Positions 32,887 through 37,809 of a DNA stretch of 64,000 nt are shown one piece after another. The stretch covers positions 32,001-96,000 of the forward strand of contig CBDAFS010000012.1 of assembly GCA_965195285.1 (NCBI GenBank), read 5' to 3'. The stretch's first letter is position 1; every line of letters begins with the position of its first letter. Source of the DNA: an uncultured Aminicenantes bacterium (GTDB taxonomy: Bacteria > Acidobacteriota > Aminicenantia > UBA2199). The notes beneath the pieces are model-generated. The model was not told the DNA's origin, did no database searches, and saw nothing but the letters and a program-made list of their open reading frames with translations. The position numbers and the translations under genes are program-made.

Positions 32887-32914
32887 TTTAAATTGGCATT
32901 AATGGGGTTCAAGG

Positions 32915-32943
32915 TTGACTTTTGGGTTCCACTTAAGTATAAT
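32915..32943 (+). promoter_or_regulatory. sigma70-type promoter
   Basis: TTGACT-17-TATAAT; AAGGAG RBS before ATG 32977. Confidence 0.75.
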
Positions 32944-32976
32944 TCCATATCTTTTAAAGGAAAAAAGGAGTTGTTG

Positions 32977-34956
32977 ATGAGAAAAATCAATTTATCTGTA
33001 CTCATTATTTCAATGATCATGGTTGTTGGGATGAATGCATATGCTCAGACTGATGATACTTCGAAAAAGGGGTGTCCGGAGTATATTGATTATTTAAAGG
33101 CAAACAAAGAAATCATAAACTATAACACTTATGGCTTAATTGAAGGCATTGAAGAAGTCGTGCTCAAAATTTATTCCCATAAGGAGTCACAGGATCAACT
33201 TTTAGGGAGCCTGCAGGATTTTTTATATACCCGCTATGAAGTCAAGGAATTTTCCGAAGATCAAATCGTCATTTCCATTTATTTCCCGGTTTCCCGGAAA
33301 ACTGAGACGAAAGCTATTGTTGCCCCGGTAACCGCAAAGGAAATGAAGCCGGAAAAGACACCGGAAACCCGGGAACCTGAGGCCGTGATAGTGATTCTGC
33401 CCCAGCCGGAACCGGAGAAAGAGGACTGCCCCGGCAGGGTGAAAGTCCAGGTCAGGAAGATCGGATATCAGGTTTTCAAGGAGTATAAATATTTTGAGGA
33501 AAGTTTATCATTTGACAGGGATGTTGAATTGAGAACCCAGCTGACCGCCAGTGTTAAAGAGGTGGCGGTTGCTGACGGTGACCGGGTACAGGAGGGCCAG
33601 ATTCTGGTTCGGCTTGATTCCGGTGTGATCGAAAAAGAGATCAAAAGCGTGGAAGAGTTAATAAAAAACTGGAAGACTATTTTATTCAAACGTCAAAACT
33701 GGAAGGTCCGAAGCCCGAGAGCTGAAAAGCAGGCCCAGGAAAAAATCCAGGAGAGTGAAATCCTGCTGGCTCAGAAAATGGAAGACCTGTCCAAAACCCA
33801 GATCAAAGCACCCTTTGACGGCAAGGTGATTTATATAATTCCAGAGGGTGAACCCCTGGAAATCGGTGCCACGGTACTGAGGATGGTGTCCGATAAATTG
33901 ATGAAAGTATCGGTTCCGGTTGTTGATTCAGGATTGTTTTCCCAGGGAATGGATGTCCGGATTTCCTCGACCGAAGTGGAAGGTGAATTCCCGGGAAGGG
34001 TCAGCAAAACCGAGACCGAAACCAAAATAGTATTGAGGAATGAGGATTTGAAATTGTCAGAGGGCATGAAGGTCAATTTCCGGGTTCTGTACAGGGAATA
34101 TGATCAGGCCATGGTGATTCCGGAAAAAGAGGTCTTGAAAGATGATTCCGGTTATTATGTTTTTGTGGTGGATGCCAAACGGGCTGCCCTGCGCAGGCTC
34201 AACGTCGGCGTCATTGAATCCGGAATGGTACATGTGCTTTCCGGGATCAATATCGGTGAGGAAGTGATTGCCACCGGTTTGAATTGCCTTCAGGATCGAA
34301 AGAAAATCAAGGTGATGATCTGGGATGCCGTGCTAGGGAAATTGAGGCCAAGAAAAAAGAAAGAAATCATTGAAGCCCCGGTTATTCAGCCGGAAGAGAT
34401 TGAAATTCCGGTTGAACGGGTCATTAAAAAGAAAAATTATTGGCGGGTTGGCGGCGGACTGGGAGCCTGTATCGGAACCGGCAGTGTGTTCTCTGATGTC
34501 TATGGTAGTTTTGTTCCGGCCGGTTTTATTACCGCTTCCTTCACCATTAACGAGAAGGTTGAAATCTTCTTTTCTACTTCCTATATCACTGCCAGCGGTA
34601 AGGCCACGGAACTGGATGACAAGGTCACTCTGACCATGATCCCGATTTATATCGGAGCAAAAATCCATTTGAACAAGATAAAAAAGTTTACTCCCTTTGT
34701 CGGTGCGGCAATGTCCAGGTACAATACCAAGGAATCATTTCCGGCAGGGAATGAATATCATGAGACCACCAGTTACCGTTCCAATTTTGGAGGTTCGGGT
34801 TTTGTAGGGACCTATTTTCCGATCGGTAAAAAGCTCGATTTGACCGTGACCCTGAAATATGATTTCAGCCAGGTTGCCATGGAAGAAGGCGAGGAAAAGG
34901 TTGATCTTTCCGGCTTCAGGCTGTTGATCGGCGTTACCTATATCCTGGGCCGCTGA
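32977..34956 (+). CDS. Fusion: N-terminal domain, complete RND periplasmic adaptor (MFP) and C-terminal outer-membrane beta-barrel
   Basis: Signal peptide ending AYA; V.DGDRVQEGQILVRLD, IKAPFDGKV, LSEGM, IP...V....G.YVFVV, GI..GEEV membrane-proximal domain; about 8-strand barrel (IPIYIGAK, PFVGA, GFRLLIGVTY). Confidence 0.8.
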   Translation: MRKINLSVLIISMIMVVGMNAYAQTDDTSKKGCPEYIDYLKANKEIINYNTYGLIEGIEEVVLKIYSHKESQDQLLGSLQDFLYTRYEVKEFSEDQIVISIYFPVSRKTETKAIVAPVTAKEMKPEKTPETREPEAVIVILPQPEPEKEDCPGRVKVQVRKIGYQVFKEYKYFEESLSFDRDVELRTQLTASVKEVAVADGDRVQEGQILVRLDSGVIEKEIKSVEELIKNWKTILFKRQNWKVRSPRAEKQAQEKIQESEILLAQKMEDLSKTQIKAPFDGKVIYIIPEGEPLEIGATVLRMVSDKLMKVSVPVVDSGLFSQGMDVRISSTEVEGEFPGRVSKTETETKIVLRNEDLKLSEGMKVNFRVLYREYDQAMVIPEKEVLKDDSGYYVFVVDAKRAALRRLNVGVIESGMVHVLSGINIGEEVIATGLNCLQDRKKIKVMIWDAVLGKLRPRKKKEIIEAPVIQPEEIEIPVERVIKKKNYWRVGGGLGACIGTGSVFSDVYGSFVPAGFITASFTINEKVEIFFSTSYITASGKATELDDKVTLTMIPIYIGAKIHLNKIKKFTPFVGAAMSRYNTKESFPAGNEYHETTSYRSNFGGSGFVGTYFPIGKKLDLTVTLKYDFSQVAMEEGEEKVDLSGFRLLIGVTYILGR

Positions 34957-34964: not shown

Positions 34965-35051
34965 TTTATAATAATTTCCAAACTTACAAGTACCAATCTT
35001 CATTTCTTATGTAAGAATTTAAGAATTTGATGGTTCTGGGACAGTCTCGTA

Positions 35052-35070
35052 GACTTCTCTGACAGAAGTC
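35052..35070. terminator. Hairpin downstream of tsaA (possible terminator or REP-like element)
   Basis: GACTTCT-ctgac-AGAAGTC, 7-bp stem; no clear U-tract. Confidence 0.35.
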
Positions 35071-35077
35071 GCACAAA

Positions 35078-35563
35078 TCATTTTATGAATCTCTCATCAT
35101 CTTTTGTTTTTGAAAGTTTATATATATTTTTCTCAAGCCATCCTATTTTCTCTACTTTTCTTATGTCGAATTCAGGTATATACGGTTTTATATCCAGAAG
35201 AGGGGTTCCATCTACAATATCTACCTCTTGAATATGTAGTATATTATCTTCAATCCTGATAAGACGAACTACAGAGATACCGACCGGATTTGGTCTACTC
35301 GGACCTCGTATTGCAAAAACTCCGTGTACTTCGCTATCCATATATGGTTTTACTTTTAAGGGCATCTCCTTGGATAAATGAAAGTGATATATCAAAATAA
35401 TGTGAGAAAAGCCTTCCAAATCTTTTAAACCCTCGACATATTTTGGAAATAGCTCAACTGTTCCATCAATATTTTTAGCACCTGCAGGTTGTATAGGTGT
35501 TCCTTTAGGTTCTTTAAATTGAGAATGAACAACTCCGATTGGCTTGTACTTTATCTCATTCAT
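35078..35563 (-). CDS. tsaA: tRNA m6t6A37 methyltransferase TrmO/TsaA (YaeB) family
   Basis: PIGVVHS, GLKDLEGFSH, GVFA.R.P.RPNP.G.S.V.L, D.VDGTPLLDIKPY. Confidence 0.9.
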   Translation of the reverse strand: MNEIKYKPIGVVHSQFKEPKGTPIQPAGAKNIDGTVELFPKYVEGLKDLEGFSHIILIYHFHLSKEMPLKVKPYMDSEVHGVFAIRGPSRPNPVGISVVRLIRIEDNILHIQEVDIVDGTPLLDIKPYIPEFDIRKVEKIGWLEKNIYKLSKTKDDERFIK

Positions 35564-35753
35564 AATTTTATCTTTTTATATATGCAATTTTCGATAACGA
35601 CCGTATATATTCATTGTTCTTACACCGCCAATTGGTGGTATATAAACAATTGTTTATATTTTTCAACTACAGTTGTACCACATCTATCTAAAAATATCAT
35701 CTACAGGATTCCTTGTTTATTTATAGTATTTATAGGGACGTTGCTTGGAAAAG

Positions 35754-35770
35754 GGGGACGTTGCTTGACA
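35754..35770 (+). repeat. Inverted repeat, left end (GGGGACGTTGCTTGACA); partial extra copy at 35735-35747
   Basis: Perfect reverse complement of 36726-36742. Confidence 0.9.
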
Positions 35771-35798
35771 TCGTGACATTTATTTGATATTTTTTTTC

Positions 35799-36716
35799 AT
35801 GCGTCACCCTAGAATTACTTACAAAGATGCCTTTCACCATGTTATGAATAGGGGAATTAATGGTGAGAAGATATTTGAATCTTCAAAAGATAAAAAATAT
35901 TTTCTTGAATTGGTTTTAGAGAAATCAAAGATTTTAAAAATCAGGATTCTTGCTTGTTGTATTTTAGATAATCACTTTCATCTAATAATTCAAAATTGTT
36001 CAGGTAAGATGAGTGAATTCTTGAAAAGGATAAATAGCCAATATGGATATTATTATAGGAAGAATGTAGGAGGGCATGGATATGTATTTCATGGGAGATA
36101 TAAATCAACATTAATTCAGGAAGACGAATATTTAAAAATGTCACTTTTATATTTATTTCTCAATCCTGTTCGTTCTGGCATCGTATCAAATCCATTTGAA
36201 TACAACTGGTCAAGTATTCAAGAATTGTATTTAGCGAGACGAACCAGAAAACTAACGGATTATAAATTCATAGAGGGATTATTTGGAGACCGAGTGAATT
36301 TAGTGGATAGCTTGAATATTTGGATGAATAAAGAGTTACCAATAGAACAAAATCGTTTTGGAAATTTTTTGGGTGACAATAAATTCCTGCCCAAATCACT
36401 TAATCTATATAATAGAAGGAGAAAAAAAGGAATAAGTCGTAGGATGAGAATTTTTGATCAATATTTTAAAGGAGCCACTCAAATCATATCAGAATTTGAG
36501 AATGAAAAAGGAGTTACGTTGGACAAAGTTGATTTTGTTAGTATAGAAGGTAAGGGATTGAGGGGAGAATTATTGGTGCGATTAAAGGATGAAGGTGGCT
36601 TGAAATATACAGAAATTATTAACTATCCATGGTTTGAATCCTTGAAGTATAATTCTTTAGGTCAGGTCTATAAAAGAACAAAAGTGAAACTAAATAACAA
36701 GGTGAAAATAAAATAA
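35799..36716 (+). CDS. REP-associated tyrosine transposase (RAYT/Y1_Tnp, IS200-like HUH) with C-terminal extension
   Basis: HHVMNRG...IF, NHFHL (HUH), GHG.VF.GRYKS, Y...NPVR.G.V..P..Y.WSS. Confidence 0.9.
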   Translation: MRHPRITYKDAFHHVMNRGINGEKIFESSKDKKYFLELVLEKSKILKIRILACCILDNHFHLIIQNCSGKMSEFLKRINSQYGYYYRKNVGGHGYVFHGRYKSTLIQEDEYLKMSLLYLFLNPVRSGIVSNPFEYNWSSIQELYLARRTRKLTDYKFIEGLFGDRVNLVDSLNIWMNKELPIEQNRFGNFLGDNKFLPKSLNLYNRRRKKGISRRMRIFDQYFKGATQIISEFENEKGVTLDKVDFVSIEGKGLRGELLVRLKDEGGLKYTEIINYPWFESLKYNSLGQVYKRTKVKLNNKVKIK

Positions 36717-36725
36717 CCGTCATAC

Positions 36726-36742
36726 TGTCAAGCAACGTCCCC
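36726..36742 (-). repeat. Inverted repeat, right end (TGTCAAGCAACGTCCCC)
   Basis: 9 nt after the transposase stop; matches the left end exactly. Confidence 0.9.
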
Positions 36743-36752
36743 ATCTTCATTA

Positions 36753-36770: not shown

Positions 36771-36898
36771 ATCGTTTCCCAAAAGGTAGATTTCTGCTTG
36801 TTGGTATAGGAAATAATTTTATTAAGAAAAAAAGAAAAATTCTATTGACATTCTTTTTTTAATATACTATTTATATGGTAGAAACAAAGGAGCTAATA

Positions 36899-37138
36899 AT
36901 GAGTGATATCAAAAAAAAGGATGATACCAAGATCGAAAGCCGCCGTGAATTTATGAAGAAGATTTCCAAATGGTCAAAGGTGGCATTGGCAACGGCAGTT
37001 GGAATTACTACATTCGGTTCCTTAGCCTGTCCTCGTTATAGTGATTATTACGAGTCGGCCGGGTATTGTGATTGGTATGGTCAGGATTATTATACCTACA
37101 GTTCCTACTGTAACTACACCAATTACGGAGATTATTAA
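36899..37138 (+). CDS. Small Tyr-rich peptide with twin-arginine leader and lipobox-like Cys; RiPP-precursor-like
   Basis: AAGGAG RBS at 36887-36892; SRREFMKK, hydrophobic stretch, SLAC, then a 36-aa core with 12 Tyr. Confidence 0.75.
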   Translation: MSDIKKKDDTKIESRREFMKKISKWSKVALATAVGITTFGSLACPRYSDYYESAGYCDWYGQDYYTYSSYCNYTNYGDY

Positions 37139-37272
37139 ACCCTTCATTATTAACGTTATTTTTAACTCCCGGTTTTTTCACTTATTAAATCAGTTTTATC
37201 CCTTATATTTTCGTTAGAGAAATTTTCCCCGAAGTATTATCTACATAAAGATTGGATCGAACGTCCCGGAAT

Positions 37273-37809
37273 TCAGACCAGGTCCATACCCATTTCAATG
37301 GCCCGTTCATTGAGGGGAATTAAATGATGATGGCGCTTGGGCAGTGTATCCTTCAAGGCTATCAAAAGGGATTCTTTCTTGACCACATTTTTTAATTTAA
37401 CCAGGCTGCCCAGCAGAAGCATGTTCATGACTTTTACATTTTTCAGTTCATTGGTTGCCTTCTCAACCGCGGGCAGAGCAATAACGGTGATATCGGTTCG
37501 GACCGGGGCTTCTTTGATATGGGTGCTTTCCCAGATCATCATACCACCCTTCTTGACCCGGGGTTCGAATTTTTTCAGAGAGGGCTGATTGAGCACAACG
37601 GCAATGTCATATTCGCTGACAATAGGAGATGAGATGGGCTCGTCGCTGATATTGACCATGCAATTGGCCGTCCCTCCCCGCATTTCCGGGCCATAGGAAG
37701 GCATCCAGCTAACTTCCTTGCCTTCTTTCATGGCTGCATAGGCCAGCAGGGTTCCCATTGAAAGCACTCCCTGGCCTCCGAATCCGGCAAAAATCATTTC
37801 CTGTAGCAT
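37273..37809 (-). CDS. 2-oxoacid:ferredoxin oxidoreductase gamma subunit
   Basis: FAGFGGQG, SYGPEMRGG; start MLQEM overlaps the beta-subunit stop. Confidence 0.92.
   Translation of the reverse strand: MLQEMIFAGFGGQGVLSMGTLLAYAAMKEGKEVSWMPSYGPEMRGGTANCMVNISDEPISSPIVSEYDIAVVLNQPSLKKFEPRVKKGGMMIWESTHIKEAPVRTDITVIALPAVEKATNELKNVKVMNMLLLGSLVKLKNVVKKESLLIALKDTLPKRHHHLIPLNERAIEMGMDLV

Follow-up and report, generated by a model that had tools for sequence, protein, structure and literature searches.

Two kinds of described radical S-adenosylmethionine (rSAM) systems bear most closely on the locus reported here. For the triceptides, one report documents a link from the C3 of tyrosine to the C-beta within a Y-x-K triplet, and gives the daropeptide maturases and the enzymes that form three-residue cyclophanes (3-CyFEs) a shared origin (PMC12912966). 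For HxsABCD, another describes an effector with a signal peptide, HxsA, whose period-3 His-x-Ser repeats are matured in the cytoplasm by two rSAM enzymes and a small protein, and which acts in the periplasm against phage DNA entry (PMC13128918). Here we describe P0001, a 79-residue peptide encoded in a stretch of 64,000 nucleotides (the window) of contig CBDAFS010000012.1 from an uncultured Aminicenantes bacterium (assembly GCA_965195285.1). This product is probably the precursor, and as such the substrate, of an rSAM maturation cassette encoded elsewhere in the same genome. We infer its pairing with that unlinked cassette, which lies on contig C9, from homology and from co-occurrence among related genomes. 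The features of the peptide gene are listed below.

36845..36898, plus strand: conserved upstream block (TTGAC[AT], T-run, TATA[CT]T, AGGAG) directly before the start codon, presumed promoter and ribosome-binding site (RBS)
36899..37138, plus strand: candidate precursor gene P0001, 79 amino acids plus stop, called on its homologues, a ratio of nonsynonymous to synonymous substitution rates (dN/dS) of 0.12-0.17, and a twin-arginine (RR) motif unique among small open reading frames (ORFs)
36899..37027, plus strand: leader, residues 1-43, with a Lys/Asp-rich N-region, the twin-arginine motif and a hydrophobic region ending G-S-L-A
36938-36961, plus strand: twin-arginine motif S-R-R-E-F-M-K-K, residues 14-21 (S14-K21)
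37028..37135, plus strand: core, residues 44-79, with Cys44, five Y-x-[DN] triplets, a Cys module and a period-3 Tyr run
Y56-C57 to Y70-C71-N72, plus strand: Cys module inside the core, as aligned with Planctomycete precursor modules
37088-37135, plus strand: period-3 Tyr run Y64-Y79 (Tyr64, 67, 70, 73, 76, 79)

P0001 is a real gene under purifying selection. A word-based search of 5.8 billion proteins returned five homologues of 75-87 amino acids at 64-87% identity, one of them a hypothetical protein of a Candidatus Aminicenantes metagenome-assembled genome (MAG). Among 61 related genomes, the peptide was matched in all three others of the genus (G003 at 2.6e-44, G001 at 9.6e-33 and G002 at 7.5e-29) and more weakly in a genome of another genus (G005, 1.2e-5), all other matches (E ≥ 0.0038) being internal to long unrelated frames. 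In an alignment of six sequences the leader is nearly invariant and the middle of the core is variable. Residues Cys44, Cys57 and Cys71 are invariant, as are Y47, D49, Y56, Y64, Y70, N72, Y73, N75, Y76 and D78, and the last residue is always aromatic (Y or W). The dN/dS is 0.166 between the window's genome (G000) and G003 and 0.119 between G000 and G001, with the remaining pairs saturated. A spurious ORF on a repeat was considered and is ruled out by purifying selection together with the conserved RBS and leader.

Over about 55 nt 5' of the gene the four genomes of the genus barely differ, while sequence farther upstream diverges; AGGAG lies 8 nt 5' of the ATG. We term this block promoter-like only, because it was not called in a scan for the sigma-70 consensus (TATACT is spaced at 12 nt and TATTTA at 17 nt). 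An intrinsic terminator scan of the locus found none. A longer frame of 87 amino acids opens at 36875, and since G002 has an in-frame TGA two codons before the ATG, the longer start is not the conserved one. In six-frame scans of the window's genome (57,293 frames), P0001 was the only small ORF with the motif [ST]RR.F[LFMI][KR], and no second small periodic Tyr-rich ORF was found. Contigs from RNA libraries (two runs of one study) give a weak hint that the gene is transcribed: X5 covers 36986-37275 and X6 covers 36990-37047 and 37119-37411. They span the part of the gene that encodes the core and, downstream, the spacer as far as the convergent POR gene. Neither the region upstream nor the first 87 nt of the ORF is covered, an absence that is uninformative since these are contigs only.

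The core of 36 residues holds 12 Tyr, 1 Trp and 3 Cys, and Tyr64, 67, 70, 73, 76 and 79 follow one another at an exact spacing of three, reaching the C-terminus. The repeated aromatic-x-x motif of triceptide precursors is thus present. The original prediction, made from the window alone, had described a frame of 79 amino acids with a good RBS, an SRREFMKK leader, this composition and six period-3 Tyr in the triplets YSD, YCD, YSS, YCN, YTN and YGD, all of which the translation confirms. Compared with shuffles that preserve the core's own composition, the periodicity is moderate, as 1,623 of 200,000 reach a period-3 Tyr run of six and 1,737 of 200,000 reach five Y-x-[DN] triplets. The decisive support for the Tyr pattern is comparative rather than from shuffles, and comes from the invariant residues and the array of the G005 homologue. 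P0001 matched no Pfam or NCBIfam family at E ≤ 10.

Judged by sequence, P0001 is a member of a previously undescribed family that spans several phyla and combines a leader of the twin-arginine translocation (Tat) type with a Cys and with Y-x-[DN] arrays, a Cys module, or both. In the G005 homologue, the same leader precedes an unbroken series of more than 20 Y-[SN]-D triplets, which continues past the end of the contig; used as a query, this homologue returned 88 proteins. By reading, 16 of the 88 start with an RR leader (KK in one) and continue with a hydrophobic stretch and in most cases a Cys, before long Y-x-[DN] arrays; among them are proteins of MAGs labelled Phycisphaerae and Deltaproteobacteria. 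A different signal-like N-terminus is seen in three others, and the remaining leaderless 'DYSDYS' matches, which look like frames over triplet microsatellites, were dropped. The number of Y-x-[DN] triplets per member ranges from 3 to 51 (about 50 at the Aminicenantes locus L029), and this triplet is the sole core feature common to all members, including all precursors linked to a cassette. Among 33 hand-picked members, 31 have a Cys 24-37 residues after the RR motif, and the cores are strongly acidic.

P0001 is 45% identical to the L029 precursor (E 2e-11). Some Planctomycete members contain a Cys module, C-G-Y-C-D-x-x-G-Q-D-Y...Y-C-[DN]-Y-x-N-Y-[GA]-D, in one to four copies, and G55-Y79 of P0001 aligns with it residue for residue. 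With one Cys module and five triplets only, P0001 is therefore a minimal member of the family. Ten members searched against Pfam and NCBIfam matched no family, save for TIGR01409 in one and PF13884 in one. In P0024 (220 aa), a Tat-type leader and a Tyr-rich array are combined with PF13884 at the C-terminus (Peptidase_S74, the intramolecular chaperone of endosialidase, at 65.9 bits), an arrangement that hints at self-cleaving or trimeric forms in some lineages. A small Tat-exported Fe-S protein, similar to high-potential iron-sulfur proteins or of another kind, was considered and rejected: P0001 has only three Cys and no family match, and the arrays of its relatives lack Cys.

In relatives, the precursor gene stands beside rSAM genes. 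A scan of one genome per species gave 93 pattern matches and 10 confirmed loci, for which conserved neighbours were found by all-against-all BLASTP of the loci and domains by Pfam. At six loci (L029, L031, L033, L034, L056 and L057) an rSAM/SPASM gene (PF04055 and PF13186) has the precursor directly upstream on its own strand. These six fall in four lineages, Aminicenantes, Acidobacteria, Planctomycetes and Deltaproteobacteria (L029 is from Aminicenantes, L031 is labelled Solibacteraceae, L033 Deltaproteobacteria and L034 Phycisphaerae); the earlier suggestion to look for rSAM/SPASM genes beside homologues of the leader thus gave a positive result. A third protein with four invariant Cys (the 4-Cys partner) adjoins the rSAM/SPASM gene in all five genomes from other phyla, and the L029 and L033 loci also encode a second rSAM enzyme. 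The precursors at L032 and L035 have no cassette neighbours, and their genomes carry the cassette on another contig with linked precursors of its own (two in L056, one in L057). Unlinked precursors therefore have a precedent.

The third protein had 615 matches at E ≤ 1e-3 and 401 at E ≤ 1e-10 among 1.84 billion representatives (50% clustering), and the 615 representatives therefore point to a sizeable unexplored system. Several variants of the cassette proteins were seen. Longer rSAM/SPASM enzymes of the clade (L033:12238-14346, L056:6025-7725 and L058:6564-8195) have 540-700 aa with unassigned C-terminal extensions, and that of L033 has a sub-threshold GT9-like match. At L034:10414-12639 the rSAM/SPASM enzyme is fused to the 4-Cys partner (741 aa), and in the representative search partner domains are also found at the C-termini of proteins of 600-730 aa.

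The window's genome encodes an orthologous cassette, as follows.

C9:24795-28259, minus strand: cassette of four genes, orthologues of the L029 cassette
C9:27795-28259, minus strand: secreted protein, 154 aa, 36% identical to the L029 gene (E 4e-17)
C9:26785-27765, minus strand: rSAM 1, 326 aa, with a SPASM-like tail
C9:25657-26784, minus strand: rSAM/SPASM enzyme, 375 aa
C9:24795-25778, minus strand: third protein, 290 aa by the start of its homologues, with four invariant Cys

Queried with the L029 rSAM/SPASM enzyme, the genome returned G000:C9:25672-26778 at 59% identity (E 4.9e-152), with the next best matches at 26% and 25%. Matches fell on C9, C39 and C42 and none on C12, the contig of the window, which bears out the earlier statement that the window holds no maturase. 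The L029 homologue of the 154-aa protein sits between the precursor and rSAM 1, and because this protein is homologous as well, the window's genome has the complete Aminicenantes cassette minus the precursor. The fourth cassette gene (G000:C9:27795-28259; L029:10682-11368) encodes a secreted protein of 154-228 aa that matches no Pfam family and whose C-terminal tail is very rich in Lys. It is conceivable that this basic protein is a partner of the acidic Tyr-array peptide.

Peptide and cassette also occur in the same genomes. Orthologues of the rSAM/SPASM enzyme at E ≤ 7.9e-146 are found only in G000, G001, G002, G003 and G005 of the 61 genomes, which are exactly the five with the peptide (E ≤ 1.2e-5), and the two occur together in none of the 56 others. 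G056 has merely a 28%-identical enzyme (8.8e-31), and G022, from the genus of G005, has neither the peptide nor the cassette enzyme. In G005, contig C238 ends with the precursor and C239 begins with the rSAM/SPASM enzyme. The genes for the peptide and the third protein in the named MAG share a locus-tag prefix, with tags 1,385 apart. A sample of 400 other genomes of the phylum yielded no match to the third protein at E ≤ 1e-10. A co-occurrence of five of five against none of 56, together with the orthologous cassette on C9, supports the suggestion in the original prediction of an rSAM/SPASM-modified precursor with its maturase encoded elsewhere. The same prediction had called the peptide an orphan, which holds in that no enzyme is adjacent, but not in that many relatives exist.

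These distributions bear on another explanation, in which P0001 would be an exported, unmodified small envelope protein or lipoprotein that has escaped the cassette, with the cassette acting elsewhere or persisting as a relic. All four genomes of the genus have the gene apart from the cassette and as the last of an envelope locus, which would agree with such an escape, as would the loss of the long array in P0001 and a stop codon in one copy (G003). But the cassette genes are intact in the same four genomes, at 73-94% identity, and the cassette is otherwise rare, as in the 0 of 400 genomes above. The triplets and Cys are invariant under purifying selection, and six-frame scans for the RR motif and for Tyr periodicity found no alternative substrate candidate for the cassette in the window's genome. 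We consider an unmodified protein improbable.

The rSAM/SPASM enzyme has CxxxCxxC (C17, C21, C24), GGEP (G67-P70) and eight C-terminal Cys, all invariant in 10 sequences. PF04055 and PF13186 are found in its orthologues, and the SPASM model TIGR04085 scores 51.8 bits against a cut-off of 27. Curated family models score as follows: DynA 179.7 bits (cut-off 450), the anaerobic sulfatase maturase (anSME) model TIGR03942 156.2 (349.45), DarE 147.6 (650), DarW 107.9 (650), TIGR04083 93.2 (range 93-128 bits; cut-off 300), YhhB 67.9 (445), GrrM/OscB 66.2 (310), AmcB 59.3 (425), XyeB 57.4 (450) and FxsB 51.8 (370), with HxsB and PapB also among the lower matches. The nearest solved structures are those of anSME (4k36-4k39, full-length, E 2e-41), followed by ChlB (1.8e-16) and 5wgg (6.4e-13). 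The second enzyme, rSAM 1, carries the SAM-cluster motif and, C-terminally, a SPASM-like pattern of seven invariant Cys; its family matches are generic only.

The third protein carries an invariant I-E-P-F motif and four invariant Cys, C-x2-C-x5-C-x10-C. It matched no family in Pfam or NCBIfam, and a sequence search of the PDB found no relative (best E 0.072). Aligned by hhalign with the rSAM/SPASM profile, it gave a probability of 46% and an E of 2e-4, over half of the barrel and a SPASM-like part. A search of the ESM Atlas with the homologue P0099 returned clusters of 'hypothetical protein', one with PF13186 on 17% of its members, and TIM-barrel-like folds at template modelling (TM) values of 0.34-0.42. 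As a lead, this suggests that the third protein is a pseudo-rSAM/SPASM protein with a barrel and a SPASM-like fold. PADLOC, run on the cassette and the peptide, returned only generic viperin-type rSAM matches and a 14.6-bit Cas3d match, which was discounted.

As for the chemistry, a three-residue cyclophane at each triplet appears most likely, because Y-x-[DN] is common to all linked precursors, the nearest curated relatives of the enzyme cross-link aromatic residues, and the Y-x-K link provides a precedent. The 'poly-cyclophane' of the original prediction was nevertheless too firmly worded, as this bond is deduced, the enzyme scores below all curated cyclophane cut-offs, and its nearest solved relative is anSME. 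The same system could instead perform another chemistry, namely rSAM thioethers of the sactionine or ranthionine type, from Cys to carbons of Asp, Asn or other residues, or another C-H oxidation, with the Tyr periodicity being structural. Consistent with thioethers, Cys44, Cys57 and Cys71 are invariant in the genus, Planctomycete members are built of four-Cys modules with Asp or Asn after each Cys, and the enzyme also matches TIGR04083 (93-128 bits), PapB and thioether formers of the CteB type. A SPASM enzyme that puts ranthionines on a Cys-rich protein is described in a published report (PMC13692751). However, some cassette-linked precursors have few or no Cys after the leader Cys (one in 118 aa at L031, two at L033, none nearby in P0009) and still keep the rSAM/SPASM enzyme and its partner, and DynA and DarE outscore the thioether formers. 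Thioethers in place of cyclophanes therefore seem unlikely to us, although both chemistries may occur, since a cassette with two rSAM enzymes has room for both.

The leader would carry the peptide to the Tat pathway. The twin-arginine motif is the signature of this pathway, which exports folded proteins, and the Tat consensus is S/T-R-R-x-F-L-K followed by a moderately hydrophobic region. The classic lipobox is [LVI][ASTVI][GAS]-C, for which a looser PROSITE-like form also exists; G-S-L-A-C of P0001 lies outside the classic pattern and inside the looser one. Both TatC (233.6 bits, contig C45) and LspA (135.2 bits) are encoded in the window's genome. It could be argued that the N-terminal region is merely a RiPP leader that resembles a Tat signal (a RiPP being a peptide synthesized by the ribosome and modified after translation), with the product released by a dedicated protease or transporter or staying in the cell. 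Its conservation is above what is usual for signal peptides, a hidden Markov model of Tat signals does not match P0001, and one member has KK. Yet the RR motif, a hydrophobic stretch of about 20 residues, a small residue before the Cys and a spacing of 24-31 aa recur in 30 of the 33 members across phyla, TatC is present, and TIGR01409 is above its cut-off in P0032. No protease or ABC exporter is conserved beside the cassettes. We hold a leader of this kind to be very improbable.

Under the reading that we prefer, P0001 would be cross-linked by the cassette and then exported. Since radical SAM chemistry depends on Fe-S clusters and SAM of the cytoplasm, and since the leader has a twin-arginine motif and TatC and LspA are encoded, cross-linking would take place in the cytoplasm and be followed by Tat export and removal of the leader near Cys44. 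The gene's own promoter would drive production of the peptide. With the aid of the 4-Cys partner, the rSAM/SPASM enzyme would introduce side-chain cross-links into the Tyr-x-Asp/Asn core while the peptide is still in the cytoplasm, joining the Tyr ring to the C-beta of the third residue as in three-residue cyclophanes, and the other rSAM enzyme might make a second modification at the Cys module. The rigidified product would leave through Tat, with the twin-arginine leader as both recognition and export signal, and the leader would be cut at or just before Cys44, possibly with lipidation. What results would be a small, acidic, aromatic, cross-linked peptide at the cell envelope, where, or in the periplasm, it may serve as a rigid polyanionic aromatic peptide.

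A number of observations weigh against this reading. Peptide and cassette are on different contigs in the window's genome, and their co-occurrence spans two genera of kin that are not independent, and thus few independent events. The second rSAM enzyme was found in three of the five genomes from other phyla and not found in two, and L058, with a paralogous rSAM/SPASM gene, has no precursor within its 16-kb stretch. The 33 family members were picked by eye for an RR motif and Tyr repeats, one has KK in place of RR, and P0001 itself is minimal with only five triplets. Among 31 members, the lipobox named in the original prediction is found in its classic form in 3 and in its loose form in 17; P0004 has Asp at position -1 to the Cys. 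TIGR01409, a Tat model, does not match P0001 at E ≤ 10, and is above its cut-off in one of the ten members searched (P0032; 18.0 against 16.7). The rSAM/SPASM enzyme reaches the cut-off of no curated NCBIfam family, including every cyclophane former, and because its closest solved relative is a sulfatase maturase, a cyclophane is not implied. Neither a RiPP recognition element nor a PqqD domain was detected in the cassette proteins. The RNA contigs are strandless and extend to the convergent POR gene, and may reflect DNA carry-over. In the G003 copy (L022, G003:C351, 4979-5215, minus strand), an in-frame TAG replaces Tyr56, which could be a strain-level pseudogene or an assembly error. P0002, a metagenome protein with 17 member sequences that is near-identical to the G003 copy, keeps Tyr at 56.

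Across the four genomes of the genus, the peptide gene closes an envelope-type locus at its 3' end and is convergently oriented to a 2-oxoacid:ferredoxin oxidoreductase operon (POR gamma, beta, alpha), and no modifying enzyme adjoins it in any of the four. In the window, an insertion separates it from the envelope locus.

34965..36752, no strand: insertion of 1,788 bp between the peptide gene and the envelope locus, absent from the G003 locus and not part of the system
35078-35563, minus strand: TrmO_N gene in the insertion (Pfam)
35784-36716, plus strand: IS200-like Y1_Tnp gene in the insertion (Pfam)

By blastn, the G003 locus (94% identical) lacks the insertion: the two flanks share 18 bp of G003 coordinates, and the peptide gene stands there directly behind an envelope gene of 659 aa. 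The adjacent island was thus rightly described as removable, with the peptide gene falling directly behind the envelope locus. The link to that locus stands as a positional one, but it extends over one genus only. Fragments related to the insertion are present on C62 (92% over 171 nt), C21 and C27, and a 313-aa ORF judged by eye to be like that of the insertion lies about 5 kb from the cassette on C9 (31912-32853). The ORF 5' of the insertion (32893-34956) is 687 aa long, against about 659 aa in relatives; its matches, to biotin-lipoyl-like (HlyD-type) and outer-membrane protein beta-barrel models, are all below threshold, and an adaptor-like domain paired with a beta-barrel is an unusual pairing. 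By eye, the envelope locus in relatives has sulfatase-like, GMC-like, epimerase-like and GT2-like genes, with the 687-aa ORF at its end.

How does this system compare with those already described? Triceptides (3-CyFE systems such as MicA/MicB of minviopeptin, and ChlB) share with it a core of aromatic-x-x triplets and, in relatives, an rSAM/SPASM gene beside the precursor, and ChlB is the second-best solved relative of the cassette enzyme. In contrast to triceptides, the family here has a Tat-type leader, arrays of up to about 50 triplets (L029) rather than a few, Asp or Asn as the third residue throughout, a 4-Cys partner and often a second rSAM enzyme. The enzyme also scores 52-68 bits where cyclophane formers have cut-offs of 310-450, the precursor is unlinked in the window's genome, and the cross-link would be a deduced one.

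Daropeptide cores are short peptides of the W-x-W type and are not known to carry export signals. The enzymes DynA, DarE and DarW, which cross-link aromatic side chains, are with anSME the highest-scoring curated families for the cassette rSAM/SPASM enzyme, but their scores are far below the cut-offs of 450-650 and the motif here is a period-3 Y-x-[DN]. Sulfatases are modified by anSME at the motif C/S-x-P-x-R. Here too an rSAM/SPASM enzyme would modify, in the cytoplasm, a protein that is exported afterwards, and anSME is the closest solved structure, yet the score is 156 bits against a cut-off of 349 and the P0001 core lacks C/S-x-P-x-R. A sulfatase/anSME pair involving the sulfatase-like gene of the envelope locus was considered and rejected, as the peptide has no sulfatase motif and the cassette is unlinked. 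Ranthionine and sactionine systems (CrpA/CrpC; PapB, CteB) resemble the present one in having Cys-rich modules beside SPASM rSAM enzymes (PMC13692751) and in the matches to TIGR04083, PapB and CteB. They differ in that many family members here have no core Cys, and all scores are below cut-offs.

PMC13128918 sets out an architecture much like this one, with a period-3 repeat protein bearing a signal peptide, two rSAM enzymes with auxiliary clusters and an accessory protein, and cytoplasmic maturation followed by periplasmic localisation, which for P0001 is proposed. Unlike in HxsABCD, the repeats here are acidic Tyr-x-Asp/Asn rather than basic His-x-Ser, there is no peptidoglycan-binding domain, the HxsB and HxsC models score only 21-59 bits (HxsB 57.2 against 370; HxsC 21.3 against 267.9), and the third protein has no NCBIfam match. 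The likeness is thus one of architecture and not of membership, and as to phage defence PADLOC gave only generic viperin-type matches. The closest analogues are HxsABCD at the level of the system and the triceptides in substrate logic, with scores below the cut-offs of the curated models of both.

A search of literature full text, with subscription-only papers and supplements outside it, found no paper in which Tat signals or Tyr repeats of this kind are combined with triceptides or SPASM enzymes. The precursor family and the 4-Cys partner are nameless in Pfam and NCBIfam, and the rSAM/SPASM enzyme is under every curated cut-off. What would be new is a repeat peptide that has a Tat-type leader and is matured by rSAM enzymes, together with a new partner protein and a minimal precursor encoded in trans. 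We propose tentatively, and with slightly less than even confidence, an undescribed multi-phylum class in which a Tat signal serves as leader and 5 to more than 50 Tyr-x-Asp/Asn triplets are cross-linked in the cytoplasm by an rSAM/SPASM enzyme and a pseudo-SPASM partner. In uncultured anaerobic bacteria of sediments, the exported product would form a 'ladder' at the envelope, rigid, aromatic and polyanionic, and its precursors could be encoded in trans. By analogy with HxsA it may work in the periplasm, for instance against the entry of phages or by binding cations or minerals, and would not be a diffusible antibiotic. Being encoded in trans, such precursors would be missed by neighbourhood-based genome mining. 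P0001 is a convenient test case: its core of 36 aa holds five triplets and three Cys, and the cassette is complete with four genes. If the proposal is true, it would join radical-SAM peptide cross-linking to Tat export, extend triplet-repeat substrates from a few motifs to arrays of dozens, and add a second case, after HxsABCD, of rSAM-matured period-3 repeat proteins sent to the periplasm.

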